Shown piece after piece: positions 2,177 through 26,700 of a DNA stretch of 64,000 nt. Below the pieces are notes generated by a model, which was given only the letters and a program-made list of their open reading frames with translations, searched no databases and was not told the origin of the DNA. This stretch comes from Psammoneis japonica (taxonomy: Eukaryota). How positions within the stretch are numbered: position 1 is the first letter of the stretch; each line of letters opens with the position of its first letter. The position numbers and the translations under genes were made by a program. The stretch lies in the NCBI GenBank assembly GCA_008632985.1, contig QPGO01000035.1, forward strand, positions 483,899-547,898. The letters are read 5' to 3'.

Positions 2177-2559
2177 TCTCACTTGCGACACCTCCCTTGG
2201 TTTGTCTCAGCAGCATGCAGGCACAAATTTGCAGAGCTGACTTTTTTCTGCTGGCTCCAGCATCATAGAGATGCAACAAGAAATCATTGTTGCTTGGTGA
2301 CAACAAGAGACTGTTTGAATGCATGGCCGTCATGCACCATGGCTCCATGAGCACATTTTTCAAAGTTGCTTTTCATCAAATGGGGGCAGCCTCCACCTCC
2401 ACCTTGGCAATGCTGATGTTGCCAATGGCAACCTTCTTAGAAAAAATTCAAAGGCAGAGTTTGCCCTGACTCCCTGTGTGCACTGGAGACAAGCATGCTT
2501 GTGAGTGCATTGTGAGCCCCCCCCCCCCCCTCAGTTTAAATTTGTCGTTTCAAGCTCAT

Positions 2560-5200: not shown

Positions 5201-5399
5201 GTTTTTGAGAGCTCAAAGGCAAACCACAGCTGCCACAGAGACCAGGACAAAGTGCGGTGAGTCATGCAGGAAAACCCAGAGGATTCCCTTTTGGTGACAC
5301 TGACTTGCTGGTTCAACATTCACTCCAAAAAGTTGCCACAAGCATGTGGTGTTTGGTGCATGTGGTGCTGACCTCCATTTGATCATCCAAAACAGGAAG

Positions 5400-6650
5400 C
5401 CTGCATCATGAGCAGCAATGGAGGCAGATTGGGTGCTGAAGGCTGAGGTGGTCAACAAAGCAGGGGTGTCAGAGGCCAGAAGTGTCTCTTGCTTCAATGA
5501 GAACAAGAAGAAGGCTGACCCCAAGAAAAGCTTCAAGCCAGAAATGAAGTTTTGTCCATCATCAATGAGCAGCAACTCATGCAGCCATGTGTTCAAAGAT
5601 GTCAAGGGAAAGATCTTCAGCCACCACATGCAGAAAGAGTGCAGTCAAGGCATTTGCCTGGCAAGGTCCTCCCCAGAAGACAATGACTGCATGACTTTCA
5701 CTGATGAGAGACCAATGCTGGAGATGGCAACAACAGCAGTGCAAGTGCCAACTGATGCTGACTGCCAGCAGTCTGTCAATGAGAGAGCTCAAGAAGAAAG
5801 GCAACTCAAACATGGGCACATGATGAAGCCACACAACTGCAATGAGAAGATGAGGAAACTCAAAGAACACAACAGTGTGGCATTTGCAGTGATCCCAGAG
5901 GACTGCAGCACCAAGCCAATGAAGCAGATTCTGCATGCACAAATGTCAGGGACAACCTGATCAAGCTGTTGAAGCTGATCCAATCACTGATGCTTGACTC
6001 CATGAGAGATTGACATCCATTCCATGCACTTGACAAGTGCCTGTTGCACATGCTGGAAGTGAAAGAACAAGAGAACGAGTCACTGAATGACCACCCATCA
6101 CAATTTAAAAATCAGAGAGATGCTGCAAATGAAGGTCTCGGCAGTGGGATGCTGGATGGATTTGTCAAGAACACCAAGCAATTCAAGAATTGTGCTGATG
6201 CAGTGGAAGAGACCAGCACATTGTCAGAAGCTGCATTTGAGACATGGACTGCATTCTTGTTTGTGGAGAACAGTGATGACCACTGCTGCAAGAGCCCATG
6301 AAAGAGCCTTGTGTGAGTCTGGGCCAAGCCAACATTGGCATTGAGTCAGATGAGATCATCCTTGACAATGGTTCTGCCCTTGGCATGGCAGCAAGCTGGA
6401 GTCCAGTGCACAATGTGTGACCAGCAAGGGTCAAGATTGACCTGTCCATGAGTGCAGGAATGGAGACTTTTGGATGCAGACTGTGCTGTGCCAGGATGGG
6501 GTGACATGAAGCTTGGATCACAGAAGGTGACAGCGAATGTCCTGAGTTTGAAGGATGCAAAGAGCAAGCACTGTCTTGTTTGTGACAACAGGGTGGCAGC
6601 TGAGTTCCGTCTGCTGGACAAGAAGTCTGGCAAGCAGGGTGTTGTCTGAT
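5400..6650 (+). mobile_element. Decayed LTR-retrotransposon gag/pol fragment (Copia/CoDi-like)
   Basis: Fragments such as DNLIKLLKLIQSLM, VKEQENESLNDHPSQFKNQRD and KVTANVLSLKDAKSKHCLVCD resemble diatom Copia gag and pre-integrase regions as I recall them; interrupted by frameshifts and stops. Confidence 0.5.
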
Positions 6651-7029
6651 CACACACACCTCCAAATTTGTGCAAGACCATGCTGGACATTTGGGGAGTT
6701 GGTTGTGGCCTTACAAAAGCATCGGCACTTCCCATTTGGTGAAAATGCCAACCAAATGCTCCTGTTGCCATGTCCAGAGAAGGAAAGTCATTAAAAACTA
6801 TGACCATTTGGTCGTTTTTAGCACCAAACAGGGCGTGCTGATGCTCGTCACAGTGTCATCATCCTTGAAGAAATGGTGATGCAACACAAGCTGCTGTTGA
6901 GGGATGGAAAGTGGAAAGGTGTTCCTGGCTGGTCAGCCCTTCTTAATGGGCCAACAAAGAAAAAAAAGAGCCTTCAAAGTCATCTTGGCTGTGTGCCACC
7001 TGTCAAAATGGAGATGGCTTTTCTCTTGT

Positions 7030-7350
7030 TGTTGTCATCAACACTTGGTTGAGCTCAATTTTGAATGACAAGAAGTGTCGGGGCCACAAGAATGGTTGTT
7101 TGTCAGACCATTGGTGACCCAGTTGAGGTTGCTGTTCTGCATGCCTTTGGCTGCAATGGTGCACTTGATGAGCCCATGCTGCGTCACCACAACAGTGCCT
7201 GTGGCGTCATTGTGCTCACGCTTGATGCCAAGCTGCTGCAATCAAAGTCTGTCAGCCTTCAAGGCACCAGCCAATCCAGACACCATGCATCCACATGAAA
7301 CAATGCGTGAAGCGGAAAGCACCAAGTTTCTCAAGGCAAACCAATGAACC
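7030..7350 (-). mobile_element. Copia reverse transcriptase fragment
   Basis: LGIKREHNDATGTVVVTQHGLIKCTIAAKGMQNSN matches the Copia RT pattern LGIxIxxxxxG.I.LTQ.GLI..II...GL. Confidence 0.55.
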
Positions 7351-7479
7351 TCAACAATCATTTTTGGCATCACAGTCTCCCTTGCATTGACCTGGAGGAA
7401 AAAAGGCTGATGGTGATCCATTGTCACCCTTGTCATCCAGCTCAGGAAGACTGATGATTGAGCAGGAAAATGTTTCTCC

Positions 7480-8620
7480 ATCCTCCTCCATCATGCTGTC
7501 TGGGACAAGATGGGACTCAATCACATGGATGACCTCATTGCTGGCTGACACATTGCCATGAATCACTGCTGGGTCCACAGAGGAGGCAGTCAGCATGGAG
7601 CTGAGAACAACAGAGTTCTTGATGACTGACATTTGAAGAAAGTGCTGTGAGTGTGCCTGAGGAACCAATGCAGCAAGCATTTGTGTTTTTGTGTGCAACC
7701 ATTGGCAGCAATGCTGCAAATGACAACAACCACAATAAAATGCATTGTGGTTGTTGAGAAGCTTGACAAACATGTCCTTGTGAGCTGGTTTGGCCAGCAT
7801 TTGCCGCATGCCTTCCGGCAGTTGTTGAATGGCACTGTTGGCAGGAGCCAAAATGGTGTGGGGGGCATCACCCACATGTTCTTCCACTGTTCTGGCAATG
7901 ATCAAGAGCTCAGTGAACATGGAAATGTCCAGCATGAAGGCCTTGGTTGGCAACAGGACTTTGTCCAGAACATGAACAATGCCACTGGATGCCATCAGAT
8001 TGGCGCAGATCACATTGGCCTGGTGGTTGATTTGCGTGGCGGGTTCAAGGCTGGTGACTTGAAGGTTTTCACCATTGCGTGCATCCACTTGCATGTCAGA
8101 TGACAGAATTGAGGCATCCAAAATGATGTGATGCAAGAGAATGCTTGCCAAGTGGGCAATGTAAATGTCACAAAAGAACTTGGCTGGGACCGCTGTGAAG
8201 GCTTCATTGCTGGGGACAAACAACATGATGGAGCCTTTTCTGACAATGGCATCAACAAGATTGGCACTCTCCAGAGAGCCTCTGCAAAGGACATGAATTG
8301 ATGTTTTTTTCACCAGTGGTGAGCTTGACAAGGGAACTGTTGGTGGCATTGAGTCTGAAAAAGCTGCCAGGTGTCGAGGTTGAAATCTTGGCACCGCTCA
8401 AATCAGCAGTTGTGCTGGTGACAGAGGATGGGGCCAGGGTGGGTGGATTGGCGGCATTCACCAAAAGCTTGGTTGGAGACATTGTTGGGCTTCCTGCTGC
8501 GCAGGCAATCTCAGTCAGCAAGTTCACAGCATTCAACACCTCAGTCAGTGAAAAGTGGGAGTTCCAGCAGCATTGGAGGCATCGGTTGGTGACAACATCT
8601 GGTGGGGCAATGATCTGACA
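7480..8620 (-). pseudogene. Fasciclin (FAS1) repeat protein pseudogene, 3' part
   Basis: FAS1 H1/H2 motifs in ORF 7351..8394: MLFVPSNEAF, ILLHHI (canonical YH), ASSGIVHVLDKVLLP, HTILAPANSAI, ASNEVIHVIESHLVP; degenerate. Confidence 0.75.
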
Positions 8621-8999
8621 TTGTGCGCAAACGCGTGCATGACAATCTTGCTTGTTGTGACAATGTGTTTTTGAATTGATGTAAAAATTCTTGCTTTGCA
8701 TGCAAAAAATCTTGGTTTTGATGTGAATTTTTTTTGTCATGCATTGCAAGAAATTTCAAACATGACAACCACACGGATGACGCACCCAACATTTTCAAGT
8801 GTAACACTCGGCCGCTTTCTCACCATGTGACAAGTCACCTTGTGACCATTCCCCGATTTGCACTGCTTTCAAATTGCGCCTTAAATGCAATGAGCACACG
8901 CATGTCTTTTCCGACAATTTTCAGTGTGACACTGTGTCACTTTTCAACGTGCGACAACTGAACTCCAGTGCACGTCCAATTCACATTCCATTCAGTTTG

Positions 9000-10660
9000 T
9001 TGCTGCTGCAGTTGTTTGAATTTACGTGGTTAATTTCATTGCTGTTGCCATGTGCTGGCAACTGCACCCCACTGGCAAACATCTCTGTTCCGCCATCTGC
9101 ATGCTTGCGCTGCCCTCTGCTGTTTCTGAGGGTTGTCATTCACTCTCCCTCCCCGAGAACCCGTTTGTGTCAAAGCACTGTTGTCAGTTGCTGCTGCTCC
9201 CAGAGCATCTTCATCTGTGTCCTCCGGGTCGTCATTCCCTCCTGTTGCCTCCTGCTTGCTGTGCTCCAATCAGTTTCTGGAGCAGCCCACCCACTCATGC
9301 TGTCCTTCTTTTTCTTCTTCCTTTTCTTCCCTCTTGCGCTCTCTAATTTCCTTGGCTGAAGGCAATGCACATCAACTCTGCCACACGTCACTCTTTCCTT
9401 TGCCACCGCATTGTAGAGTTTGTTGTGTTCTTCCATCCCATCCTGGTTCCATCCTTGATTTTGCCTGGCCCCTTTACCCTGAAATGTGTGCTTTGGGAGC
9501 ATGGGCTGTGTTGGCTGTTGCACCTCTGCTTCATTCTTGAATCTCTGTTCTTTCTCCACGATGGACATTGCTGCTTTGCAGTGGTTGTTGCACGTTGGCC
9601 TTGCAAAAGCTTCTGTGCTTGTTGTTGGCTGATTGCTGACACCTTGGGCATCTGCTGTCTTAAAGTGTTCCATTGCTGCCACAACAGAGCAGCAATTTTT
9701 CAAGAATCAGAAGTGTGTTTGCGGTTTTGCCCTGCCCTTTTTGATGTCATCAATGCTTGGCATCCATCCATGCCATGTGTCGGCACACCTGGTTGCAACA
9801 AATTCTCTGCCATGCGGTCAATGTCCGACCTGTCACAGGCCAATCTTGTTGGGTTCTTCCACAGCCCCAGAGCAAACAACAACATTGCAGCGTTGTAAGT
9901 TTCCAGCCTCTTTGCCAGGAATTTCCAATGCAATTCATGGGTGTGTGCCACAACGCTCAGCCACCTTGTCTTGTCTGCAATGGCTTCCATTGGTCATGGA
10001 CAGAGATCATTGGTGTTGCAGTGGATGTGTGTTCCTGCATCAGTGGTGTCCATCTTTGATGCATTTCGAACGCGGTCACCATCACTTTGAGCCTTGCACA
10101 GTGTCTCTCTTTCCATGCGTTCTGATGTCATCAAAGTCATCCCAGTGCCTGCATTGCAGGTCCACCATGCGCTGTGTGAAATGCAGTGCATCTCTTGCTA
10201 GAACTGGGTTGGCAATGGCAGTTTTCCTCCGTCAGGTCCTCCTCTCCTGTCAGGGTCAATGGAAGGATGCATCGCTCTGTGCCAAAAACCTTGCAGCTCT
10301 TGTGCTCTTGCATGCACTTGCTTGGCGCACCACTCAAATGTCACGGTCTTGTTTCCATTCCACCAATCTGTGGGTTGATTGTCCACAATCAACTCTTCTC
10401 TCCCAACAAACAAATCCTTGTTTCTTCACAATCTTGAGCAATCAATTCCTGGGCCAGCTGTCTGCCGCCTTGTTGTGCTCGTTAAAGGTGATGTGCTCAT
10501 GGCAACTAAGTTCATCAAATGCGTGGGCCTCGGCCGCTGCCACTTTTCCATCAAAACCTCTGGCTTCATCACCATCCATGGTTGTCAACACAGCAGATCA
10601 GACTGCAGCGTCTGTGTCAATTGCTGCCTTTTGCATCTGCACCCATTTGGGAAAGTGAGT
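9000..10660 (-). mobile_element. Decayed transposon accessory ORF (type commonly associated with diatom Plavaka-like elements)
   Basis: TTSTEAFA...PKHT...NQGWNQDGMEEHNKLYNAVAKER resembles the T.S.EAF...PKYT...GWS.EG...YN.L...V..R signature as I recall it; adjacent to the Plavaka transposase remnant. Confidence 0.5.
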
Positions 10661-10999
10661 TGTTCAAGCCTCATGGGCAGTTGTCCGCACAGTCACCCCA
10701 TGTGAAATTTTATAAATGGGGCAACAGTCCAGGCATTCTTGGCACCAAAATTTGTGTCATCCCCACATGAAATGATTGTTGCATTTGCTTGTGTGTCCTT
10801 TGTTTTGTGAAATGAATGACATGCAAAACTGCACCTTCTTTTTTACATGTCACTGAAACAGAAGGGCAAATTTTAATGTTTGTCACACATGTCACCAAGA
10901 TTTGATTTCTGCAGATTAATCGTGCAATTCATTGCACTGTGACAAAAACAGAGTTGCTGTTTCTGTTCTGTTTCTACACATTTGTGACACATTTCTTCA

Positions 11000-13450
11000 T
11001 GCTGTGACAGAAATGGGTTGCCAATTTTTTTGTGTTTGCTTTTCATTGATTTGGACAATTGCACTAACTTGACTGGTTGTCCCAAGTGATGCTTTCCACA
11101 TGTTGCCGCCGCGTTGCAACAATGTTGCACATCTACGTGCCTTAGAATGGACAGATTGGGCTTTGGACTTTGACATCACTGTGTCTGTTTGTGATTTGAC
11201 AAACAGATGCCACAGGCTTTTGGTGGAACCGGGGGGTGGTCCCAGAGCTGCAATGGTTGGATGCTCCATCAATTCCTGAGAAAAGAACTGGCAGCAATGC
11301 AACGGATTGTCGCTGCACATCCAGGAAGTGTGACAAGAATGACCAATGCGGCATGCATTTTTGCATCCTGAAACACTGCCGGTTGCTTGAGCAGCATTGA
11401 CTGCATTGCCCAACAAAGTCACGTTGTGCACAATCATGCACTTGAAACAATGCTGATCTCCCAGTTGGACTCGGCAGACAGGAGGAGATTCTTGCGCTTG
11501 AATTACAGACACAAGTGGGACAGACAAGACATTCATCCCAAATGCGGGGTTCTTTGTTTTGTGGCCTGTGTGTTTCAGAACAAATCCAAGAGGACACCAT
11601 GCTTCAAAACAACGGCGGGAAGATGCATTGATGAAAGTTGTGAAGCAAACAAATGGCTCCATCAAATGAGGTGTGACCTGTCCTTTCCCAGTTTTGTCTG
11701 TGCAGAACAAAACAAACACATGAAAGGAACCTCACACAGCAGGAATGTGACCACCACGCAAACAGTTGCTGCAGGTTTCTCCGTCCTTCATTTTGGCTTT
11801 GTCCCAAAGTTTTCAGTCACCATTCTTGTCCAGCAAGGGATTGCTGGACAGCTCCTGAGACCAACGTGAATCAGGATTGATGTCTGGATGGGAGAGATCT
11901 GCAAAAAAGGGTTCATCAAACAAATCCTGCAGTTGAAGGGAAAAGTCGCACACAGGGACACCGGGAGAAATCTCCTGGGGCGGGTCATTTTTGAATTGGT
12001 TGACGATGGACACGGACTCAAGTTGGACTCGCTTCAGCACCGGAGCAACAACACTGGGCAACATTGGCTTGAGCTTTGACATGAAAGTTCAAGAAGAGGG
12101 AATTTGTCGGACAACAGACAACCCACCACTCAAGAATTCCTCTTGCACAGTTCTCAGAAGTTCATTGGTTGCGCTGGTTGGGACACCCTTGGAGCAACAC
12201 AGACCCAACATGTGGACCATGGAAATGGTTTTGCTGTTGTGAACTTTGGGCACAACAAGGTCCTTGTTGGCGGAAAGGTGGCCCACTTGATCCAGTGCAG
12301 CAAACAAGCCTAATTCGGCGAACTCGGTGGCAGCACCCGGGGGTGTCAAAAAAGCGGATGCACCTTCATGAAATGGATCAGAAACAAATTTTTTGTTGTC
12401 AGGGAGAACTGGTGTTCTGAAACATCATCGGGTTGGGGCACAACGCCGTTGGAAAAGCACGACTCCAGCACAGATGAAACTGCACGATTAAAGCACAATG
12501 GCCGGTGATTGAGTCCAGTGCAACCTTGTGGAGTTGGCCCGGTGCTGGCATCAGACCCAGTTACAACAAATTGAATGGGAGGAGAGAAGAGGGTGGATGA
12601 GGCAGCAACGTCCCCTGGGTCTTCAGATTCTGCCGTTGGCAGGTGTCCGCCATGAGCGTTGTGTCACAGCTGGGAAGAAACGGCCAACAGGCTTTGAGAA
12701 AAGGAGAGTTTGCAAGGGAGACAAGTTCTCAGGTGGTGCTGAAGGCCAGTTGGGAGGAAATGTTTGCCACAAATGGGACAATCATTTCCAACAATGGAGG
12801 GGGGTGCCATTGTTCATGTTCTTGCAAGAATGTTGAGATGAGAATGTGTGGTGCGAGCCACGTGGTAAAAACAATGCATGGCAGGTGACAAGATTGTGTT
12901 GGATGAGTCAACTTGCATGTCAGCGTGCAACATTGTGCATTGATTTAATGCACAACATTGGTTCTCTGAACACCGGCATGCAGTGCTTGCATCAAATGGT
13001 TGACACCACAAGACAAATCGGGCTGTCCGCAGCAACGGAAATTTTGCCATGCTTGCACGCATCTCAGATCTTTGCCCTCCCAGATGAAGGTTGGAGTGCC
13101 AGTGGCATTGGGAGAGACAGTTGGGTGCCTGTGGCATTTGCAGCCTTGGCTTCACCAAGCTTGTTGTCCTTTGTGGGTGGAATGAGGACCTCATTCACAA
13201 AATCAATCACACTGTTGCTGGCCAACAGGTCCGACTCTGGACCACAGCAGCATCTCCAATTGCAAGGAAATTCAAAGATGTGACTGAAAGGGATGCGCCA
13301 TTCAAGGCATCCATCGGCCACCCTTGACAAGATCAGAACTCGTGGCAACCTCATCACCCAAAATTGGCAAAGCACAAGAGTTTGTGCAAGAGTGAGCAAA
13401 CCAACAAAACAAGACAAACGAGTGGGCAGACAGCAACATCGACAGATCCA
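11000..13450 (-). mobile_element. Plavaka-like transposase remnant
   Basis: VPVCDFSLQLQDLFDEPFFAD and FVLFCTDKTGKGQVTPHLMEPFVCFTTFINASSRRCFEAWCPLGFV match the Plavaka pattern LFIDKT...LEP..FT..IFN...R....AWRPLGY; fragmented. Confidence 0.65.
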
Positions 13451-13521
13451 GTCATGCTTGCCACGACACTTAAAAAGTCAGTCAACTCATCTGTGTTGGC
13501 CGGGTCCATGACTTTGCCAAG

Positions 13522-14037
13522 TCATGTACAAGGAAGTTTGGCAAAGGCCTCATTGGTCAGAGCAAACAGGGTAAAAGCCCCGTCCTGACGGAACAACGAA
13601 GCAACACCCACGGAATTCACAAATTGCAACAAAATGGAAAGATCTGGTGCACTGTAAATCACTTCTAAAATGTTCACACTCATGGATTTAGGCATGAGAA
13701 CGTGATCAACAGCATGGATCATCACACCACCACTCATCAAGGTGTTGACAACAGCAACATGGGCCTCATTGTCAATGGTCGTGCTGGGTTCGAGGCTGTG
13801 ATCACGGTGATGTCTTCACCGTTGAGCGTTCCAGGTGTTGGCCGAGCGTGGCAGGCCCACATCCACTTTTTGAACTTGGTGCCCCCGCGCACTCATTGGA
13901 GGGTTGTCATCAAAGGCCGTTGGGAGGAGAAGCAAAAAGTGTTGTGAGCAGCGGTCACACCGCCTTGGTCGCATACAAGAAAGAAAACAACTCCAACAAG
14001 ATGTAGAAAGGTAAAGTAGCAACAACCCTTTGAACAA
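13522..14037 (-). pseudogene. Fasciclin (FAS1) protein pseudogene, 5' part
   Basis: Signal-peptide-like MFKGLLLLYLSTSCWS at 14037; downstream in another frame GGVMIHAVDHVLMP...NILEVIYSAPDLSILLQFVNSVGVASLFRQDGAFTLFALTNEAFAKLP (FAS1 H2 then H1); truncated at the TE block. Confidence 0.7.
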
Positions 14038-14128
14038 AGAGCGGAGATGGAAAAAAATCTAGTGCATTTTCTATGGTACAACCTGCTAAAACCTACGGCT
14101 GTCCTATGGAGGCGCTGCGTTGAGGCTC

Positions 14129-15217
14129 TCACTCCGTCTTTAGCCGACTGGGGCTGGTGGGAGGGCTGTCGAGCGTTACACCCAATGCAATGAAGTATTT
14201 ATCGAAGCTGGCATTCAGCATCTTGAGCATGAACTTCGTGAGCGGCTGAGGGTTCCCATCTTGCCACTGCATAACTGCGTCCAAATACTGATTACGCTTT
14301 TTGTTGAGCACAATGAGGTATGGGTACTTCGCTCGAAGCAGTACAAAGTTCATGAGGAGTCGTGCCATCCTTCCGTTGCCATCTTTAAATGGGTGGATAC
14401 GAACAAAGATAGAGTGACATGTAATAGCGAGAAGGAAAGGATGCGTATTGTCGTTTTTCGCAAGCCACTCGAGAAACTGCTTGACCAAGTCCTCTACTGC
14501 GAGAGGTGGGGCCAATAGCACTTTCACTCCGTTGATTAAGGCAAGTTCTTCGCCTGATCGAAGAATACCTCCAATGCTAGACTCATGCATTACCATTTTG
14601 TGTAAGGACAACAGATGCTTCACAGTGAGCTTCTCATCAGCATTCACCATTCGGACAATCTCCTTCAGCGCTTTGTCATGGCCAATAATTTGATGGAATT
14701 CTGCTTGCGTAACCTGCTTCTGGAAGCGCGGGATCATAATTCCTGCCAAGATAATTGTTGTTTCTCGAGCTGTGATTTTATTCCCCTCAATAGCATTAGA
14801 GTTGAAGGTCATGTCCTCCCCTAGAGCTTTGGTGATCTTTGATACAGTTTCGTAGTCAAACGGTCTAAGAGACACCAGCTTTTCTTTCTTTCGTGTCAAC
14901 TCGTCCAATTTCGTGTCATCTTCCAAATTTGCCACTCTGGTGAACAAGCTTGCATAGTTGGCAAACTCCTGAGCACCAGATGTATCGTTCCTGTTTTCGT
15001 AGAGCTTATTATGCTCCGCAACCACCCACTCCGAAACATCCTTGTACAGCGCCTCTCGCTCCTGTGCAGCTGCCACCGCTCTTCGCTGCAACAAAATCAA
15101 AACAAAAAAGAAACCTATGACAGCGTACCACCCCCCAAGAAAGTTAAGGACTCCAAATGTCGCATGGGCTACGGCAGCGACAATAGACAGAAGGAGGAGC
15201 GGAGTAAACAAATCCAT
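14129..15217 (-). CDS. Fic/DOC-domain AMPylase with N-terminal hydrophobic helices (class II, FICD-like)
   Basis: Intact 362-aa intronless ORF with catalytic HPFKDGNGRMAR, upstream inhibitory motif SNAIEGN, and two N-terminal hydrophobic segments. Confidence 0.92.
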   Translation of the reverse strand: MDLFTPLLLLSIVAAVAHATFGVLNFLGGWYAVIGFFFVLILLQRRAVAAAQEREALYKDVSEWVVAEHNKLYENRNDTSGAQEFANYASLFTRVANLEDDTKLDELTRKKEKLVSLRPFDYETVSKITKALGEDMTFNSNAIEGNKITARETTIILAGIMIPRFQKQVTQAEFHQIIGHDKALKEIVRMVNADEKLTVKHLLSLHKMVMHESSIGGILRSGEELALINGVKVLLAPPLAVEDLVKQFLEWLAKNDNTHPFLLAITCHSIFVRIHPFKDGNGRMARLLMNFVLLRAKYPYLIVLNKKRNQYLDAVMQWQDGNPQPLTKFMLKMLNASFDKYFIALGVTLDSPPTSPSRLKTE

Positions 15218-15339
15218 AGTTGTAGTTTTACTGGTTGCGCGTTGCTGTCATGTCGAAGAAAAGAAGAAAATTGAACCAGCCAACAGTGCCAGTCGGTCGT
15301 CGGCTGTCAACGAAAAATCGCGCGCACAATAATTAATAA

Positions 15340-16603
15340 GGGTGGGAAATCCCTTGTGTTTTCGACATATATTCGCAAAAAGCATGAAAAATAACTAATA
15401 TTTTAATCATTTATGACGCAAATATGGAAAAAATATACCGACGCGTTCTGCGCTCACCGTGCAAACAACACGACAATGGCCGAAATGCCGTTCGTTCTCG
15501 GAAACTGAGTGGGTCAGCCTCCAAACTTTCTCACAGTATATCGCATTTGATATGGACAACAAACTTATGAAGAAAGTTTGAGGCTTACCCACCTACATTG
15601 CGTTCAACGAACGGCATTTCGGCCATTGTCGTGTTGTTTGCACGGTGAGCTCAGCATTCGCGCTCAAGCCTTTTGAACGTTTTTCCATAAATTGCACGTA
15701 TTCGCGAAAAACACTGTCTTATTTTAGCAGTTTTTCCTTTGAAATTTCTATAATTCACCCCAAAACAAGGGGGTTCCCAGCCTTGTTTTTCGCGAGACGT
15801 GCAATTTATGGAAAAACGTTCAAAAGGCTTGAGCGCGAATGCTGAGCTCACCGTGCAAACAACACGACAATGGCCGAAATGCCGTTCGTTGAACGCAATG
15901 TAGGTGGGTAAGCCTCAAACTTTCTTCATAAGTTTGTTGTCCATATCAAATGCGATATACTGTGAGAAAGTTTGGAGGCTGACCCACTCAGTTTCCGAGA
16001 ACGAACGGCATTTCGGCCATTGTCGTGTTGTTTGCACGGTGAGCGCAGAACGCGTCGGTACATTTTTTCTATATTTGCGTCATAAATGATTAAAATGTTA
16101 GTTATTTTTCATGTTTTTGCAAATATATGTCGAAAACACAAGGGATTTCCCACCCTTAAGGCTGGGAACCCCCTTGTTTTGGGGTGAATTTTAGAAATTT
16201 CAAAGGAAAAACTGCTAAAATAAGACAGTGATTTTCGCGAATACGTGCAATTTATGGAAAAACGTTCAAAAGGCTTGAGCGCGAATGCTGAGCTCACCGG
16301 GCAAACAACACGACAATGGCCGAAATGCCGTTCGTTTAACGCAATGTAGTTGTGGCGGCCTCCAAATTTCTTCATAAGTTTGTTGTTCACATCAAATGCG
16401 ATATACTGTGAAAAAGTTTGGAGGCTGACCCACTAGTTTTCGAGAACGAACGGCATTTCGGCCATTGTCGTGTTGTTTGGACGGTGAGCGCAGAACGCGT
16501 CGGCACATTTTTTCCCCATATTTGCATCATAAATGATTAAAATGTTAGTTAGTTTTCATGCTTTTTGCAAACACATGTCGAAAACACAAGGGATTTCCCA
16601 CCC
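15340..16603. mobile_element. Array of three ~445-bp MITE copies (PIF/Harbinger-Tourist-like): A 15340-15782 reverse, B ~15786-16155 5'-truncated, C 16160-16603
   Basis: Imperfect TIRs GGGTGGGAAATCCCTTG / GGCTGGGAACCCCCTTG, flanked by TAA/TTA(A); near-identical internal sequence; an internal ~47-bp inverted repeat (gctcaccgtgcaaacaacacgacaatggccgaaatgccgttcgtt). Confidence 0.8.
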
Positions 16604-16648
16604 TCAACGACGAGTCGTCGAGTGCGAGTCGTCCCTGCCTGCTCCGAA

Positions 16649-16870
16649 CAAAAGTGGCAGTGCAGTGCGGCGCTGTGTTTTGTGGATTGGTGTGCTGTGC
16701 CAGCCGTCACAGGTCATTTGTGACGTGTCATCGGAGGGAAACTTTTCTGTGGCTCACTTGTTGCATGATCAAGTTGCAACAGGCCTGTTGGAGCATTCTG
16801 TTGATTGTTGCATCACATCCCACTGGCACTGTGAGCAGCTGAGCCACTTGGCAGCAGGATTTGTTCGCTT
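16649..16870 (+). repeat. 5' LTR of the Copia remnant
   Basis: aaagtggcagtgc...ggcactgtgagcagctgagccacttggcagcaggatttgtt aligns with 19690-19925. Confidence 0.8.
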
Positions 16871-19689
16871 TGTCAGAGGTCAGAGCCACAGTCCTCGCTC
16901 GCGCTTGGTGAGTTCAACGACTTCATTGAATGGTTTGGTCATCTGGCATGGATGGTGTGAAGCATGCCAATCAAACCAAAGGGTGCACGATGATGTTTCA
17001 TTGCCTGGCACAAGTGTGCACACAGACAGTGGGGACAGGGCCCGCCGTTCCCGTGCTCACAAGGCTTCGTGTTGCTGCCAACATGGTGGCTGAAACATCA
17101 CTGTGATGAAGTGTGCCTTCCAACACAACTTTCTCCACTCCTTGCACTCACATGACACAGGCATCACCATGGTGACTGCTCCTCCAAACCCCATTGAAGC
17201 TGTGTGTGAGCAGATTGGTTTTGTCGTGCCTGCTCAGCGGGCATCGATGATGGCCGATTTGCAGTCTTTCGACAATGCAGCTGACCTCAAGGAGGGCAGT
17301 GTCAACTTCCTGGCATCCTTGCATGCAAGAAGGACAGTGGCTGAAGGGTGTTTCCATTTTGGATTTGCCCACACCCATTGTCTCAAGGCACTGATCCACA
17401 TTGTTTCCAAGACTTCCAGTGGTGTTGGCGAGACTCCAACTCTTGCGGGTTTGGACCAAGTGTCATTCCATGATGTGCTGCAAGCAGCTCTCAGTCAGGC
17501 CAAGATTTGCGTCCAGCAGAAAGAGCAGGCAGATTCTCTGGCTCAAGAGGCTTCTCTTGAACTCTCAAAAAACAAGAAACAGTGGCCTGAGTGGAGCACT
17601 GCTCTCAAGAACTTGTTGGGCACCATGCCAGGCGTGAATGGTGTGCCACTGATTTACGTGATCCAGGACAACAACAACCCAGACCCTGACGGGCATGCAA
17701 CTTTTGTCCAGAAGTGCGCTGCTTGTGCTCCTTTGGACAGACACCAGTCTTTGAAGCCAATGCTTGCACTGTCAATCAGTTGATCGTTTCCTTCACAAAA
17801 GGAGCAGCCCGTGAACAGTGGACAAAGGAGGATCATCTCCTCCAAAACTGTTGTGTTGACCATTGCAATCTGGAGGACCATTGCCAGGATGAAGGCAATG
17901 CCACCCGTCACATCTCAGAAGCTGAGAGGTTGGAAACCACTCTCTTCCACAGCAAAGAATGTTCTCTGACTTTTGAGGTGTTCATCAACAAGCTCCAGGA
18001 AATGTTCGACATCTTTGAGGAGAATGATGAACCCAAGACTGACACTCAGAAGTTGTGCATTCTGTTTGAGAAGACGCAGCACCAACAACTTCAGGCAACC
18101 ATTGAGACCTTCAAGGTGCAGAACAAGTTTGGAGGAGGCATCACATTTGCAACCATGGCCAACCATCTTGCTGCCAAGGTTGTGACCTTGCCGGAGACGA
18201 TGTCACACTGTTGTGTGATTTCATCAGTTGCTTCTGGTGAAGGCAGTGATCCCAGCATCTGTGACCCTGATTGTTCCATTGACACTGGGCTCCACAAGAA
18301 TTGGAGTGACTTGAGTGCAGAGGACAAGAAGAAGGTTGCAGATGAGCATGTGCATCTCCAGGTCTCAAGAAGAAACCTGGGAACCCCAAACGATGTGCTG
18401 CATTGGTCAAGTTGCTGAAGAAGAAGAACCAGAAGCTGTCATTACAGCTGACACTGGCAAACCAGAAGATTGCAGCTCTGAGTGTGCCAATCCAACTGGC
18501 TCTGGTTCCAGCGAGGGCAATGAAGGGGCTGACAGACAGCACCAAGGTGACAGTGGTGGAAACAATGCTGGAAATGTGTTTGGGGGATGCAACGAAAAAC
18601 AGGACAAGTGTGGCGGTGGTTGCAACTGACTGGTGTGCTGGGCCTTGCTCTCTAGCATCATCCAGTGTGCTTTGTGGATTGCACAATGGGGTGGGGGGCA
18701 GCATTGCCAACATGTTTGCCGATGCATTGGGGAGATTGCCGCTTCACCCAGGCACGTCTCAGCAGCACATACAAAGCAACAAGGCACCCACATGCGTCAG
18801 AATGACCAGGCAAAGCATGGGCAATTAGAGTTGGACTTGCATGCTGACACTGCTGTTTTTGGTCAGAATTGTTCCCTCTCAGGTTGTTCTAGATGCAAAT
18901 GTGATGTGTCACCTTGCAATGATGAGTGCGCCTCACTGCACCATGCAGAGAAAGGATCTGGACCCGCGCTGGTCTGGAATTTGGCAAGTGGTGAGGTTGC
19001 ATCATGCTTGTGGTCAGAGCTCTCTGTCCCACCAAATGTGCCACCACCTCAAGGCAAGTGTGTGTCCACACATCCTTTTGTTGACGCTTGCCATGCTGGG
19101 AATGTTGCAGACCATCACAGCCACACAGGTGTCTTGATCTTCTTGTGTTGGGCCCCAATTGTCTGGCACTCAAAGCATCAGAATGTGGTGGAGGCTGGCA
19201 CATTTGGTGCAAAGATGATGGCTCTCAAGACTGCTGTTGAGCCAATTGAGGCCCCAAGGTGCAAGCTTTGGATGTTTGGGGTTCCCATTGAAGGCTCTGC
19301 AAACATTTTCTGTGACAGTGAAGCTGCACACAAGAATTGTTCCATTTTTAAATCGACCCTGAAGAAGAAGCACCATTTGATCGTGCATCATTGCAATCAT
19401 GAAGCAGTGGTGGCTGGGACAGTTGGGATTGCAAAAGAAGATGTGGAGACAAACTCTCTGATCTGTTCACCAAGGTCATGACATCCATTTGACAAAAAAT
19501 TTTGTTGGACAAGTTCACTTGTTGTTTGGTGATTTGACAGTTGTCCGTGTGCATGCCCAGGGCGGTGGTGATGTTTTCCCCCAGTGTGGGTTGACACCAT
19601 GTCCAAGGTTTGGGTTTCATTTCACATTGACTGAATTGTCTCTCTCAAGCTGGACCACAGCTTGCCAGGAACACTTCAAGGGGACCAAA

Positions 19690-19925
19690 TGAAAGTGGCA
19701 GTGCGGCACCATGTTTTGTGGATTGGTGTGCCGTGCCAGTCATTGCAGGTCATTTGTGACATGTTGTCAGAGAGAAACTTTTCTGCGGCACTCCGGGAAC
19801 TTGTTGTGATCACTTGTTGCATGATTGAGTTGTGACAGGCCTGTTGAAGCATTCCATTGATTGTTGCATTGCATCCTGCAGGCACTGTGAGCAGCTGAGC
19901 CATTTGGCAGCAGGATTTGTTTGCC
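19690..19925 (+). repeat. 3' LTR of the Copia remnant
   Basis: Starts TG directly after the purine tract; homologous to 16649-16870. The right boundary and TSD were not resolved. Confidence 0.8.
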
Positions 19926-20999
19926 TGTGAGAAAATGCAGCTAGTTGTTTCTACATCCAGGTTTGTGAACCCAAACTTGGGTTCACTTCTGGTGAGACTT
20001 GGCTGGAACATTGAAGAACAGTCCAGCTGGCACCAAGCAGGGGAAAACTCCACCGCTTGTCAGGAGGCTTGGGTCATTTCGCCATTGTGTGACTGTGCAA
20101 TCATGTTTTGAAGATCTGTTGACCCCCCGCCCAGCATGAAATGGGTCCGATTCGGCACTCAACAGCTGTTTGATGCACTCTCAACCACAGTGCCCAAGCA
20201 GTTTCATTGCTGAAAATTCTGACAAGACTGATCTTTGTTGAGAACAGTTCTGGTGGTCAGCCAGCAGCATTTTAATGACCATGAAGAACCTTTTCTGTCA
20301 TCAAGTGCTTGCTCTTGTGGAGCTGGTTTGTTGACAGCCTTGCTGCATTGGAGCCAAGTGATGGTGGTGAAGAAGATGATGATGATGAAGACAACCACAA
20401 TGACTTCAACAAAATTCCAGAACATGCCGGTGCAGCTGTGCTTCAAGCTTGCAAACTTTAGAGACTTTGGAGACATTGCATCATGCGTTGTTGTTGTCAC
20501 CCTGCTTGGTCTTCCTTTTTTTCTTCTTGGGCAGTGGACTGTCATCTTCTGTGTCAACTGAACAGCTTTCAACAACCATGGCACTGATGATGCTTTGCCC
20601 TGTCATGGGAATTCTCTGAATCTCCCAAGAGCTCCATCACTTGGGCCAGCTTTCCATTGCAGTTCTTCTCATGCTTCACAAGGAACCTCTGCAAGAAGCC
20701 AGTGTGGCAAGCGTCAATGCTGCGCTGTTGTCATTTGCTGGTTCTGCCATTGCCATCTCCATGGTGCCTGCTTGCTCTCTCCTGCTGAACAACTCTGTGT
20801 TCACTTGTTGGCTGTCATCAAAAAGCAAAAACCAAGAAAGGACCCATCAGTTCCAGGAGTTTGGTTGAGTCACACCACAAGTGTTGTTTGCAGCAACTCA
20901 TCACAACTTCCAGCTGCTGTGACTGTGGCAGAGGCCTGTGTCTTGCTTGCAGGAAGTCTCACCCTCAGTCATCAGGGTGGCATTGTTGCTTGTTTCCCC

Positions 21000-23900
21000 C
21001 AATGCGGATGGCCCTTGGTGCTGCAGTCCCACGAAGCCTGCACTGGGTTTGAATGATGGTCTTTCCACAGACAGATCAGGCACAGGAATGGAGAGTCCAT
21101 GACTTGCAGAGGAATGGTGGGCCCTTTCATCAAGGAGAACTTGAATGAAAACATCTTGCTGTGGCTTGGGTGTTGCACTCACAATCCATGCTGGAATGCA
21201 GGGAGCAAAATCCTTTCTCCCTCAAAGAGCTCCACAATCACACCTGTCTGTCTTTGCTGCATCACCTTTTGCTCCCTGCCAGGTTGGCTTGTGGCAAAGA
21301 TGCCCAACTCTGCAGCAAGAACCCAGAGATTTTGGTGATTTGGAAGCCCAGTTGCTTCTTCCGCAAGATTCTTGATGTCTTCTGCTGGTGCCTTTCCCAC
21401 AGTGCAGGCTGCCTTGCAATGAAGCTGCTTTTCTGTTTTCCATTTGTGGTGCTTTTTCTCAAAGTGTGCGAAGGTCAACCTTGCATGCTTGGAGTGAATG
21501 ATGTGCCCACAGCCTTTGCACTTTGGTGGATGACCCTGCTTCTTGCTTTGTGGTTTGAACTCCAAGCTCACTTTCTTGAAAATTTTGGCACCCTGCCTTG
21601 GCTGGGGAAGGAGCATTTGGCTCCAATGTGGCCCCATGTTTGACAGCTTCTCTCTCATGTTTGATGGTGACTGTCCTGGTTGTGCCTTCCTCATCCATTT
21701 CATGGACAGCAACAATGGCTTCTTGCCCTGCTGTGTGAGCCAGCACTTGGCACTCATCTTTCTCTGAAAAGAAATGCAGCAGATTGCTTTTGTCACATCT
21801 GTCATAAAAAATCCACCCTTTGCCAGCATGCAGCTTGATGCAGCAAGTGAAGTGCACATTGTTTTGTGTGTTGATGGTTCCCTGCAGCAGCCCTTTTCTG
21901 CCTCCAAAGCTGATGGACTTTGGGGCAGTTGACAAGTCAGAGGTTGGACCTTTTGCTGGTCCATGACACACCAACAAATGAGGGCACCTCACAACTCTTT
22001 TTTCCAATGACCACACAGTGTTGCCAGCAAAGATGAGTCAGTCTCTCAGTTGAGGAGCTGCAGGTCATTTGGAGACATCTCATTGCCACCACCTTCCAGA
22101 CATGCACCGGTGTCCTCTCCCATTGTCCTGTGAAGTGTCTCTTGCAGGTGAGAGAGGTCATTGATGCACTCCAAAGTGGCACGGGTTTCTGTCACAGTGG
22201 TTGGCTCTGCATTTGGGCACCAATGTTTTCCACCAGCACACAGCCACTCAAACTTGAGCTCCACCTCAAATGATGCAAAGAGAATGGGTGGCCAAAAAGC
22301 ACCACAATTGATGGGCCAAACATGTCAAACGTTTTGGCATGTGTGCTGCTCCTCACCTCTGTGCAATCCATGCAAGGCAGTGCTGTTGGATCAGCAACCC
22401 AAAGGTGACAAGCATTGTCATGCCTCCCAACCTTCATGAGATCCACAGTTCTTACAAACAAGTGGTCAGGCTGCTGAAGCTCAGCCATTTGCCTGTTCAG
22501 CAGACCAAGGTGGTCAAGGCCTCCAAAAAGAATGATGAAGCTGTCCACAGGGCACATGTTGGTGATTCCTCTGCATGAGGGGGTGCCCTTCACACCCCAC
22601 CTTGGTGGGTCAAACATCCTGGCCAACACAGCATTGGGGTCATCATCATGGTAGAAGTCTGTCACTGATGTTTGCACAGATGTCTTGTTTGACCTTGTTG
22701 AGTGCTTCTTTTTTGGAAGATTGTTGTGCATGCTTGAGCAACTTGTCTGATGTGTCAGGAGCTCTCCCATCATTGGGAACTTGCACTTCTTGGACTTTTT
22801 CCTGGGCTTGTTGCAGCCACTCTGAGCACTCCTGTGTGTGCCATGGCAAGTGGCAATGCCTGCCTGCACTGCCTTCCTGTTGTGTTGATCAGAGTTGCAG
22901 AACTTCCATGCATGAAGAAGTGTTTCTCCAACCATCATTTTCCCCTGACGGTGCTTGTTTGAAAGAGTTTTCCAACATTTTTTTTAGCATTGGTGTCATC
23001 ACAAAGGCTTTCACTCTTTTGGGCTTGCCTTTCATTCAGATTTTTGCAAGCATGAAGAAAAACGGTGGCTTGTTTTGGATCAAGGTGCCACTTGAGCCAA
23101 GAGAACCGGCATTCGGGAAGCACTTGAAAAACATTTTGCAGCAATGCTCCAGCTTTTTGTGCTGTCCTTGGGAAAATGATCCATCTCATCAACCTGGCAG
23201 TTGAACTTGCCCTCCAATTCAGCAGAGACAACACCTCTGTTGTGCACAACTCTTGCGCCAGATCTCTCAAAGTGAGCGCTGCAAATCCTGCAAAGGTGGT
23301 TTGTTTCTTCATCTGCAACCTTTGATTTGTCAAACTTTTCTTTTGCAAATGCTTTCATGGCAGCAAAAAAAAAAACCATTCCAAATGGCATCTGACAAGT
23401 CACTGGCATTGCCATGAAACTCCTCTGCAAACTGTGGCCATGACGCAGCTCTGTGGTGCACCTGAGCACAGCCTGCCAGCGCACTTTGTAGTGGGCTGTT
23501 GTTTTCCCAATCAGAATGCTGATGCAAAGAGGGGTCCACATTTGCAGGGTGAGGTCAAACCCTGAGGTGAGCGTGATGTTAATTTCACCTTGGAAGTCCA
23601 GATCAAACACAAAACCTTCCACAGAGTCTGTTTGCAGGGGGCTGCAGCCTTCTTTCAACAGCTCAATCATGCCATCATTTTGCACAATGATGTGTTGTTT
23701 TCTGTGGTGAGTTGCTCACTTTGAATGAAGGAGCTGCCAATGTCATTTCTGAAGTTTGCCAGCTTTGCAATTGAGGGTCAATCAGACAGAGGCTTCAGGG
23801 CCTTTTTGAGCAAACAAGTCACTCTGTCCAAGTTGAGCAATGCTGGGTGCAGCTTTGAAACTGGTGCCCTGGTTGGGTTGCCAACCCTGAGCTGTGATGG

Positions 23901-26700
23901 AAATGCCTCTGAAGTCAAATGGACAAGGTTGTCAAACTCAATTTGTGCTTGATGTGTCAACTTGGTGGGCAGGGGCCTGGGTTGTTTGTGTGTTCCTTTG
24001 TGCTGCACAAGCCAAGCAAAGCCTCCTGTGTTTGTGAAGGTCATTGTGCAGGTGCAAGGAATGTGCTCCATTGGTGGTGGCTTGTCCTCTGGGTCACTGG
24101 GACAGTTGGTGCACACACCAGCTTTGATGGCATGGGAGCCATGAACTTCTTTTTTCCACCCTGTGGCTGGTGGGGCCTTTTAACAAAAAGGCTGCAACTT
24201 GTGCAAATGTGGACACCCATGCAGTGTTTGCAAATTGTCTTTTTGTTGCCGCGCTCAACACAAGAGTGGACTCCCATTGCCCAGCCAACACCCAGGCAGC
24301 AGCCTGGCAAGCCTCCTGCAACAGACCACAATTGAGAGAAGTTGTTGGGAAACTTGGGCAAGCCCCCATCCATGTCTGACAAGCCAGGGACAAAGGCAGC
24401 AGAGATGGATCTGTGTCTGAAGGGCCAGATGGAGCTTTGTCTGAGAACATGGGGAAGCTTTTGGCAGGGGATTGAGCCTGTCCCAGTGATTGGGTGCTTT
24501 TCCTGCCAATGGATGACGGTGACAGCTGTGACACCTGAGCTCTGTGGGCCTCAGACTGGTGGCTAGAGTTGGACACCTTTTGCAAAAAGCTGGCTTGAGC
24601 TGGAGCAGGCCAAGGTCTGTCAAGGTCAGGAGGCTCAAGATTGGCACTGGCTGCATTGTTCAATGTCAAAAGCATGTCTCTTTGGTGCTGCTCAAACTCC
24701 ATCCTCTTGAGCAAAAGCTTGGGCTGCACAAACTGAGCAAGTGGCCTTGCTGTGTTGGGGGGGGGGGGGGAGTGAGCCCATCCTCTGGCTTGCTTTCTGG
24801 GGTGCTCATGGCTCAGTTGATGGTGTTTTTTAGAAGTGACAACTTTGTTGAACAAGCTGGACTTGAGATTGTCTGCCAAAATTAAAAATTGGGCCGCCAC
24901 GTCTGGCAGGTGGGACAGACTTCCTTTTGCAAAAATGCAAAGAACAGAAAGAAGCAGCAAAGTCAAGATGGAACTTGCCACAAAGTGCTTTGCACTGGGC
25001 TCAGATCTGAACAAAAAACTTTCTCAGGCTTTTGGGGAAGGACCCTGCACAGGAGAGGAGCAGGGGAATTTTTCTTTCCTTGCTCTGAGAAAAGTTTCTT
25101 GAAGCAGAAATGAGCCCACTTTTTTTGTGGTTTTCTCCAACCAGCGCAAGTGCTCTGAGCACAATGAATTGATGGCTTCACCAACAGCAAAGAAAAAGTG
25201 AGGACAGTGAGGTGACACTGTTTCTCCACACAAAAGCTGCACCAGATTCCTGTGGAAACAATTTTCTGGACAAAAATTTGTTGGCACAACAGAAAAGCAA
25301 ATGCTGTTGAATTCTTTGTGTCACCAGAATTTCTGGTGAGTTTTGGTGAAGAGCAGAAAGAAGAAGAGGAAGAGTTGGTTGCGGAAGAAATGAAGCAACT
25401 GTTGGTCGGCGTTGATTTGCCATTTTGGTGTTTTGTGGTTCAGCATCATGTGAAAAGGCGTGGATTGAATGCTCAGTGCAGAAATCCACATGGTCAGTGC
25501 TGGGGACATCCACGGGATTGAACAGAGAAACTGCTTTTGAATTTTGGTTGCACGGACATTGGCAAAAAACGTCGTGCTGTGCACTTTTCCCTTTTCTGAC
25601 ATCAACTTGGCTGTCATTTTCATTGGGGGGGGGGGGGGCAACAGAAATTGGGTGAAAAAGTGTGCCAGGGCAGTGCAAATTGGCAAAACAGAGTGTCAGC
25701 AAGTGTGCCACCCTTGTGTTTTTGTCAAGTGTGTTGCCACAAGTGAGCGAGTGCATGTGACCCGGGTGCAGTTTGTGCAGAGCCCAGGTGAAGGCATGGT
25801 GCACCAAACACTCGTCACAAAAAATTTGTTCTGCTCCTTGGTCTCCAATCTGTGCCCCGAACAAGAAATGTTGCATGGTTCTGCATGATGTTGACTTTTT
25901 CCACACAAAACCTGTGCACTGTTTGAGTGCAAAATGTCGACGTTCCTCTTTGCCAGCAACTTCAGGAGAATGACTCAGCTTGACACATTTGGACCCACAG
26001 ACATTTGGCTTTGATGCTCATGAAGCAGTGCACATGGCCCTGATGACAAAACCCATGCACAATGCAAAACTTTGAATGGGACAGAAAATTCTGGAAATTG
26101 TTGCCAAAAGTCACAATTCGATGGTGTCTGCATGCTTCCCTGGCAAGGCATGCATGTGTCCTTCACTTTTTTGCACCCTGTTTGTTGCTTGCCCTGTGGT
26201 CCATTCAGATGTGTCGCATCATCCAGGTTTGCACGGCACAGCACAGATCTCTTCAAAAGCAGTGTCCAAACTGCAGGTCCAAACTCTGTCCGAGGGCTTG
26301 CAATGCCATTGGACAAAACTGTCACAGTCAAAAAAGCTCATGTTTGTTGTCAGTGTTCATTTGAGCAGAAGAGTGAAGAGTTCCGTCATTTGTTTTTTTG
26401 TTTTGGTTTTCTTCACAATTTTAAAAATTTTGTTGGGCCAACCCAAGCCAAGCAAAAAAAGAAAATGAAAAAGATGAAATGGCTCGAAAAGCTCGAACTT
26501 GCCCGGATTTTCACCCTCAACTCTTTTGCACGCAACTCGGCCGAAACAAAAAAGAGTCCGACTCTTTTTTCACAAACCCAGAAGCGTGAAAAAAGAGAAA
26601 AGAGTGATGTGGGCCCCACATGCTGTCACACATTTCGCACATGTGTCTTGGTTTGCACAGGACACCAGCAAAGCAAACCAAAGTTCGCCTCACGCACCAC
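21000..26700 (-). mobile_element. Decayed Mutator-like (MULE) DNA transposon with a GCM-like Cys/His domain
   Basis: CKHCMGVHICTSCSLFVKRP...MEHIPCTCTM...HKGTHKQPRP (GCM-like) at ~24.0-24.3 kb; TSGFDLTLQMWTPLCISILIGKTTAHYK and DDTNAKKNVG (MULE core-like) at 23.0-23.6 kb. Boundaries are approximate. Confidence 0.55.

Follow-up and report, generated by a model that had tools for sequence, protein, structure and literature searches.

Large parts of a 64,000-nt stretch of Psammoneis japonica contig QPGO01000035.1 (the window, in whose coordinates all positions are given) have lost nearly every TA dinucleotide. In the block to the right of a small gene island, CA-versus-TG doublets between the two LTRs of a retrotransposon, together with the replacement of conserved tyrosines by histidine or cysteine in its coding remnant, firmly indicate by sequence comparison that TA was turned into CA or TG after the element had integrated. 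A MITE copy at the edge of this block, copy C, carries CA at several sites where two related copies carry TA, and these TA-to-CA changes hint at a spill-over of targeted mutation into adjoining DNA.

TA-depleted domains in the window

The window is diatom nuclear DNA. Its SHMT gene (53414-55012) has diatom proteins as closest relatives, with up to 79-80% identity, and the long open reading frames outside the depleted stretches, including that of the ribonucleotide reductase (RNR) large subunit at 55800-57659, encode ordinary eukaryotic enzymes. The SHMT, RNR and Fic genes are undepleted in TA. Scored in 500-bp steps, five stretches are depleted, at approximately 1.6-14.0, 16.55-27.1, 32.3-33.6, 47.0-50.4 and 58.1-59.1 kb, with TA observed/expected (o/e) ratios of 0-0.2, CA and TG o/e ratios of 1.5-2.3 and a GC content of 0.44-0.53; in their cores, the CG o/e ratio is 0.0-0.4. 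An undepleted island of 2.6 kb between the first two of these stretches holds an ORF with a Fic domain and three MITE copies:

1580..13974, no strand: second TA-depleted domain, on the opposite side of the gene island; TA o/e 0-0.15, CA/TG o/e 1.5-2.3
14129..15217, minus strand: Fic-domain ORF in the undepleted island
16551..27150, no strand: TA-depleted domain on the right side; TA o/e 0-0.15, CA/TG o/e 1.5-2.3

A TA-free run of 1105 bp reaches from 16550 to 17655, that is, from MITE copy C into the right-hand domain, where CG is depleted in the core and spared in the first ~130 bp. Depletion of CG is likewise narrower than that of TA at 13.0-14.0, 16.55-16.75, 26.45-27.1, 49.0-50.35 and 58.85-59.1 kb; TA loss thus outreaches CG loss at several edges, so that the two processes are separable. 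The proposal of an earlier note on this DNA that the process does not strike every repeat equally holds, given that the MITE copies keep 16-22 TA each and that a repeat at 27.0-28.3 kb has no TA depletion.

Among 130 ORFs of the blocks, a Pfam search returned two matches to real families, both Fasciclin, and a GP4 match below the cut-off; a lenient Pfam rescan of six block ORFs yielded nothing credible, and a search against Rfam gave no matches. The Fasciclin-domain ORFs sit within a depleted domain, and in a comparison with eight homologs, which at 25-34% identity are too distant for a count of polarity, one conserved Tyr is replaced by His and another by Met.

Contigs from three sequencing runs of one sample were compared with the window. 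Those of run X2 are absent over the depleted segments 9001-13669 and 17005-26342 and none of run X3 could be placed, and both runs were left out of the evidence; run X1 is possibly the source sample of the assembly and hence not independent. Unique X1 contigs (depth 58-66) agree with the depleted parts to within 2-4 differences per 0.9-2.5 kb, so that the composition is not an artefact of one consensus, and an origin of the blocks in faulty calling of modified bases is ruled out by these same contigs of the possible source sample. Among the 40 of 2042 differences listed between contigs and window, CG/CA differences make up 9 of the 12 transitions in depleted parts (10641-23571). A single-copy contig covering 12886-15366 reaches into the depleted domain left of the island.

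Polarity and timing of TA conversion in a copia-type element

The element nearest to the left edge of the right-hand domain is recognisable from its sequence as a degenerate Ty1/copia-type LTR retrotransposon:

16645..16875, plus strand: 5' LTR of the degenerate Ty1/copia-type element (BLAST core 16662-16868)
19023..19457, plus strand: C-terminal RNase H part of a copia-type polyprotein, by homolog match
19686..19930, plus strand: 3' LTR (BLAST core 19698-19924)

The ORF piece at 19023-19457 aligns with the last 140 aa of proteins of 1300-1400 aa; homologs number 2893 at E<=0.001. Among the long homologs scanned, RVT_2 is present in 4/4 and rve in 1/4; Pfam gave no match for the window ORF itself.

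Of 235 aligned positions, 39 are mismatched between the two LTRs, 35 of them by transition. Ten CA-versus-TG doublets account for 20 of the transitions, and eight further differences set CG against CA or TG. A doublet is the result expected where one ancestral TA (or CG) underwent conversion on one strand in one LTR and on the other strand in its partner. Since LTRs are identical at integration, each must have been converted independently, on integrated DNA. The RNase H remnant, compared at 73 columns conserved among 40 homologs, points the same way: all three conserved Tyr now read His (CAC, CAT) or Cys (TGC), and four conserved Arg now read His (CAT, CAC, CAT) or Trp (TGG). We also considered conversion in strand-coordinated tracts, which was rejected on a variance of (CA-TG)/sqrt(CA+TG) of 1.08-1.17 inside the blocks, compared with 1.25-1.61 elsewhere; of the LTR doublets, 8/10 share one orientation (p=0.11).

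Tetranucleotide context of surviving TA sites

The few TA that are left in the blocks follow a context rule. Among the 80 remaining in 25.8 kb of blocks, 49 are of the form YTAR (TTAA, CTAA/TTAG or CTAG) and only one is of the form RTAY (ATAT, GTAC or ATAC/GTAT), compared with 251 YTAR and 431 RTAY among 1400 TA outside the blocks (p=1.5e-16 and p=2.4e-11, respectively). Scaled to the densities of the same TA contexts outside the blocks, estimated survival is 52% for TTAA, 26% for CTAA and 13-16% for CTAG and GTAA, 1-4% for CTAC, ATAA, ATAG and ATAC, and 0% for GTAC and ATAT. On either strand, sensitivity goes with 5'-TAY and resistance with 5'-TAR.

The MITE trio and its kinship

Three copies of a short, non-coding element of ~445 bp with termini GG[C/G]TGGGAA..CCCTTGT.TT occupy the right part of the undepleted island, the features by which we classify it as a MITE:

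15339..15782, minus strand: MITE copy A, full length (~445 bp), with imperfect terminal inverted repeats
15784..16156, plus strand: MITE copy B, 5'-truncated at alignment column 80
16160..16604, plus strand: MITE copy C, full length, with its last TA at 16550
16605..16644, no strand: spacer of 40 bp between MITE copy C and the LTR, with 0 TA and rich in CG

Further contigs that bear this MITE next to other flanks exist in run X2 (loose end at 16159), while a metagenome scan with a 20-nt MITE core found two loci only, both of them chance matches of 20-32 nt. The left flank of copy C is TTAA and its right flank TCAA, copy A lies between ATAA and its junction with B, and the end of another MITE copy reads ...CCCACCC TTAA. 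Target-site duplications of TTAA are of the piggyBac type and those of TWA of the PIF/Harbinger type.

Copies A and B form a 99% palindrome whose arms of 322 nt (15378-15699 and 15797-16118) are joined end to end, and copy C shares 93.9% identity with A and 92.8% with B. Being one local inverted duplication, A and B represent a single lineage rather than two independent offspring of a master copy, and a vote of two copies against one therefore gives no polarity to the changes in C. The idea that the three copies supply a built-in outgroup fails for this reason. To root the right arm, the left arm of the MITE was considered as a paralogous outgroup and dropped, as the arms are too diverged beyond their 25-bp termini. 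The earlier note describes the right end of C as touching the depleted block; from the LTR of the element, C is separated by the spacer of 40 bp.

Base differences of copy C

All bases quoted in the earlier note for copy C against A and B are present in the assembled sequence, and the comparison of the three copies gives the following sites:

16390, plus strand: CA in C, TA in A and B, context ATAT; a site absent from the earlier note
16504, plus strand: CA in C, TA in A and B (T of B at 16059)
16506, plus strand: CA in B and C, TA in A
16517, plus strand: CA in A and C, TA in B
16526, plus strand: gCAtcat in C, gCGtcat in A and B
16544, plus strand: TG in B and C, TA in A
16572..16574, plus strand: CACA in C, TATA in A and B (T of B at 16124 and 16126); two sites in ATAT context
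16605, plus strand: flank cccTCA in C, cccTTA in A and B; TCAA against TTAA/TTAT at other termini

At 16605, the right terminus of C has G when read on the reverse strand, in a place where the left end of C, both ends of A and the end of B have A. Because four other termini thus carry the T, comparison of the ends marks 16605 as the sole change in C with intrinsic polarity. A polarised change from TA to CA, as had been claimed for C as a whole, accordingly stands at this base and falls away at the remaining sites, where the tree is unrooted.

Overall, C differs from A and B by 20 substitutions and two indels. Eleven of the substitutions are transversions, and seven of the changes are clustered at 16350-16366. 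Copies A and B differ from each other by just four substitutions (columns 358, 369, 396 and 421), all in the right arm and all setting TA or CG against CA or TG. With C as outgroup, parsimony would make these differences gains: of TA at 358 and 396 in copy A and at 369 in copy B, and of CG at 421 in copy A; the allele that B and C share at column 421 also occurs in nine other contigs (difference at 15374).

A concentration of changes in the last ~105 bp of C had also been proposed. By class of change it is there, with 4/5 changes of the TA/CG-versus-CA/TG class against 1/15 others inside this segment (p=0.005, for a 105-bp cut chosen after the data had been seen), and by TA sites it is not significant: among TA common to A and B, 3/8 are absent from C in the right arm and 1/7 elsewhere (p=0.57), and the site at 16390 lies outside the segment. 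The clustering of changes in C largely tracks where the TA sites are.

What the variable sites do respect is the context rule of the blocks. The trio has 25 TA positions, of which seven vary to CA or TG (columns 241, 356, 358, 369, 395, 424 and 426), and these are 7/12 of the positions in sensitive contexts and 0/13 of the others (p=0.0016). In the right arm of C, 6/7 sensitive sites are no longer TA and 0/4 resistant sites have changed (p=0.015). To the right of 16550, all three TA sites of C are lost, including a resistant one, the TTAA at 16605. If TA was ancestral at all seven sensitive sites of the right arm, losses amount to 1/7 in A, 2/7 in B and 6/7 in C and so increase towards the block. 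A generic drift from C to T in A and B would have no cause to keep to the context rule, which makes the action of the same process in the MITEs likelier.

Origin of the changes in copy C

Whether the block process leaks out of its domain with declining strength is a different matter, and the spreading with distance that had been suggested from copy C does not find support: A and B vary in the same class and the same arm at 0.45-1.3 kb from any block, other edges are sharp, and age is a confounder. All four A/B substitutions (at columns 358-421) lie within 97 of 373 aligned columns (chance 0.005), and the right arm of A, located ~1.2-1.3 kb from either block, faces away from the right-hand one, so the right arm itself may be a hot spot. 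Substitutions outside the class number 15 in C and zero between A and B. C is thus the longer branch, which confounds time with distance, and its dose may mirror age instead of distance. Losses in copy C affect 6/7 sensitive sites of the right arm and 1/4 elsewhere (p=0.088), and a sensitive ATAT at 16519 is kept between lost sites, which means that there is no monotonic gradient. The hits specific to C are 5/5 CA and 0 TG (p=0.06); the first 100 bp of the block have 15 TG and 4 CA.

The other edges give a mixed picture. Several are sharp to <30 bp with sensitive TA intact: at 58137, three GTAC remain no more than 26 bp from the edge, and past the edges at 50386 and 59116 sensitive sites are present again immediately. 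Elsewhere, margins of 100-400 bp hold only resistant TA (13572-13689 and 27006-27147). Pooled over ten edges, no general spill-over was detected, the sensitive class making up 16/50 TA within 100 bp and ~42% farther away (p=0.19). Edge behaviour is heterogeneous, and a spill-over into MITE copy C is plausible on about 5-7 sites that include one truly polarised base.

Against this background, the reading that we favour, though at even odds, places copy C on the blurred left margin of a chromatin-scale domain hit by a post-integration process that turns TpA into CpA or TpG. The same process might instead have acted without any spreading, with each MITE copy, wherever located, taking low-rate hits in its AT-rich right arm, which perhaps melts easily or sits in a susceptible context, and with the C lineage being simply older. 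The four A/B substitutions, confined to this arm and to this class with none outside it, would be expected under such a scheme, as would the orientation of copy A away from the right-hand block, the 15 non-class substitutions of C and the lack of a near-edge deficit of sensitive TA over ten edges. It accounts poorly for the loss of 3/3 TA in the 55 bp nearest to the block, among them the polarised 16605 in its resistant context, and for a TA-free run that continues unbroken from 16551 into the block, and it needs parallel hits at columns 358, 369 and 396; we consider it unlikely. Taking the boundary reading and the one without spreading together, the changes in C probably come from the process that shaped the block and ran from TA to CA or TG.

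Ordinary divergence between subfamilies, by which the CA alleles of C would be ancestral, A and B would have gained TA by C-to-T changes and the cluster would just reflect an AT-rich arm, strikes us as rather unlikely, though several observations speak for it. The tree of three copies is unrooted with A and B as sisters, parsimony on the A/B differences runs from CA/TG to TA, the family allele at column 421 is that of B and C, 11/20 differences of C are transversions unrelated to the process, and the clustering, once normalised to TA sites (3/8 versus 1/7), is not significant. What it leaves unexplained is why variable sites occur only in contexts preferred in the blocks, why two changes occur as a pair, at 16572 and 16574, 30 bp away from the saturated block, why C departs from four other termini at 16605 and why A and B differ by four class changes and no others, which is unexpected under a general spectrum. 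We see very little room for an assembly or consensus artefact in the local triplicated repeat, such as reads mis-assigned from other MITE copies. The contigs of the sequencing runs do break inside the MITEs, the sole contig covering 16271-16312 differs from C at eight positions, and the best run lacks 15% of the words sampled from 12001-22000; yet unique contigs match the flanking island and the blocks at the low rate of differences given above, and C shows a pattern that, unlike random error, is specific to context and runs on into the block.

Proposed mechanism

Under the boundary reading, a domain-wide process at the DNA level would turn nearly every TpA into CpA or TpG, most simply by deamination of adenine at 5'-TA-3' with greatest strength at TAY, and a slower decay of CpG to TpG or CpA would run alongside. 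The saturated zone would start between 16551 and 16571, inside MITE copy C, and a mosaic zone would extend 50-200 bp leftward from there, with the CA at 16572, 16574 and 16605, and probably those at 16504 and 16390, as low-dose hits of the block process. The sequence of events would open with a mark on the retrotransposon domain, for which cytosine methylation is suggested by the CpG decay in the cores and by the preponderance of CG/CA among the transitions listed for depleted parts. An enzyme would then change the A of 5'-TA-3' on either strand of chromosomal DNA to a base that pairs like G, and replication would fix the result as TA to TG or TA to CA.

An adenine deaminase of the TadA/ADAT2 type would fit the requirement for TA. 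The tRNA substrate of ADAT2/TadA-type enzymes is U33-A34. A route through modification of thymine, with T-to-C changes at RTA, is also conceivable. The most far-reaching form of the proposal is that diatoms possess a TpA-specific, TAY-preferring, deamination-like defence that is targeted to chromatin domains, saturates retrotransposon domains and leaks over ~50-500 bp with falling dose; we put this forward tentatively and hold it to be more doubtful than the boundary reading of copy C. Were such a graded leak true, the MITE trio would be a natural dosimeter, with 6/7, 2/7 and 1/7 sites lost at ~0-100, 450-550 and >1100 bp, respectively.

Comparison with known mutational systems

The closest counterpart is the de novo TpA-to-CpA/TpG hypermutation of integrated viral DNA described in April 2026 in mutation-accumulation lines of Bigelowiella natans (bioRxiv preprint, 10.64898/2026.01.13.699255). 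According to the main text of that study (Mettrop et al. 2026), the targets are integrated NCLDV and virophage DNA, the de novo rate in these lines is ~1000-fold above background, and an ADAT2/TadA-like adenine deaminase is proposed as the agent (10.64898/2026.01.13.699255). As presented there, the Bigelowiella mutations are exclusively T/A-to-C/G transitions at TpA, and the signature of the depleted domains and the direction of change in our block match them. The two cases also share a target of viral or transposon origin with ordinary genes spared, although Fasciclin-domain ORFs are depleted here as well. They differ in the host, a chlorarachniophyte there and a diatom, that is, a stramenopile, here; in the target, to which a Ty1/copia LTR element and an ORF with a Fasciclin domain belong in the window; in strength, with a TA o/e of 0-0.15 here against a Rho of 0.45 reported for the NCLDV region; and in the loss of CpG from the block cores of the window. 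The main text of the Bigelowiella study contains no mention of sequence context, flanking DNA, boundaries or diatoms, whereas a TAY/RTAY preference and the behaviour of edges can be described here. Conversely, the events in that study are de novo, and ours are deduced by comparing sequences. Our literature search turned up the Bigelowiella study only, and nothing on depletion or hypermutation of TpA in diatoms.

Fungal RIP resembles the process in the window as a regional, post-integration defence by point mutation that ruins transposons and leaves a dinucleotide signature, and the likeness possibly extends to leakage, RIP being able to reach a few hundred bp into the DNA next to its target. 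RIP itself can be rejected as the cause, since it changes C to T at CpA and enriches TpA, whereas here TpA is nearly absent and GC, at 0.44-0.53 in the blocks, is not lowered, the reverse of the RIP signature. With regard to a dependence on duplication, a possible further difference from RIP is that a single-copy contig (12886-15366) reaches into the depleted domain.

Methylated transposons in diatoms undergo CpG decay driven by 5-methylcytosine, and the low CG o/e of the block cores and the 9/12 CG/CA differences among those listed are of this kind. Such decay cannot explain the loss of TpA, and the CG-depleted area is also the smaller one at several edges. ADAR and APOBEC enzymes, of which ADAR prefers a 5' U, edit the RNA or cDNA of retroelements before integration and would likewise leave a deaminase signature on retroelements. 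Pre-integration editing of this sort was rejected because the LTRs diverged by independent TA conversions and because sequence outside retroelements was converted too, both of which place the process on integrated DNA.

Significance

Regardless of what is claimed for the MITE, hypermutation of TpA to CpA or TpG occurs also in a diatom, where it is near-saturating and strikes retrotransposons. What is new compared with Bigelowiella is the stramenopile host, an LTR retrotransposon as target, near-saturation, the TAY rule, the proof of post-integration action and the coupled decay of CpG. The rule that TAY is sensitive and YTAR resistant constrains the enzyme, and CpG decay forms a separable layer. 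If the direction and the distance dependence of the changes in copy C hold, they would show how tightly a eukaryotic mutational defence is confined and how far its danger reaches into neighbouring genes. How sharply such a defence is confined is a central question for fungal RIP, too, and the mechanism is testable in diatoms as a transformable group of algae.

Sequence context of the remaining TA sites

The TA dinucleotides that remain in the depleted blocks, stretches of the window in which TA is nearly gone and CA and TG are raised, show a strong context bias, for which the following blocks were counted:

1710-13470, depleted block
16551-26917, depleted block
32504-33513, depleted block
47036-49157, depleted block
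58267-58851, depleted block

With Y for C or T and R for A or G, the context YTAR holds 49 of the 80 TA left within these blocks compared to 251 of the 1400 outside them in the window, while RTAY holds 1 of the 80 within and 431 of the 1400 outside. These biases imply that 5'-TAY is the favoured target of the conversion of TA to CA or TG and that 5'-TAA is the most resistant context. The few TA at 42000-44000, a GC-rich region (59-66% GC) with long ORFs overlapping on both strands, are due to composition and not to the block signature, because CA and TG are not doubled there.

TA loss and CG loss

At several block edges, the TA-depleted span is wider than the CG-depleted span and leaves margins that are poor in TA at normal CG density:

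13000-14000, margin
16551-16750, margin
26450-27150, margin
49000-50385, margin
58850-59095, margin

The two losses are therefore separable, and TA loss appears to be faster or wider than CG loss. Within the depleted parts of 10641-23571, CG/CA accounts for 9 of the 12 transitions among the differences listed between the window and the unique contigs of sequencing run X1, a majority suggesting that CpG decay there is ongoing or heterozygous.

Repeats and genes in or near the blocks

The window holds several repeats:

15378-15699 / 15797-16118, palindrome arms of MITE copies A and B (322 nt, near-perfect, 97-nt spacer)
50247-50312 / 50500-50562, inverted repeat (66 nt) across the edge of a TA-depleted zone
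1540-1851 / 1865-2176, tandem duplication within a depleted block (94.6% identical)
27010-28343, high-copy repeat

Copy B of the MITE is truncated where it joins copy A, and the pair looks like a local foldback duplication rather than two separate insertions. One site of the inverted repeat is CA in the arm inside the zone and TA in the arm outside. Where the tandem copies differ, one of the sites is TA/TG and two are CG/CA, and a TG/CA doublet is also among the differences. The repeat at 27010-28343 counts as high-copy because its summed contig depth in run X1 is 3900-7200 versus about 60 for unique contigs; it adjoins a depleted block, yet it is not TA-depleted (TA observed/expected 0.45-0.63).

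Two ORFs inside a depleted domain encode Fasciclin domains:

7354-8397 (-), Fasciclin-domain ORF
13525-13815 (-), Fasciclin-domain ORF

Fasciclin is not a transposon gene family. Of the 348 residues encoded at 7354-8397 (-), just 2 are Tyr, and a conserved Tyr-His dyad is now His-His. The conversion process hence acts on any sequence that lies in a depleted domain.
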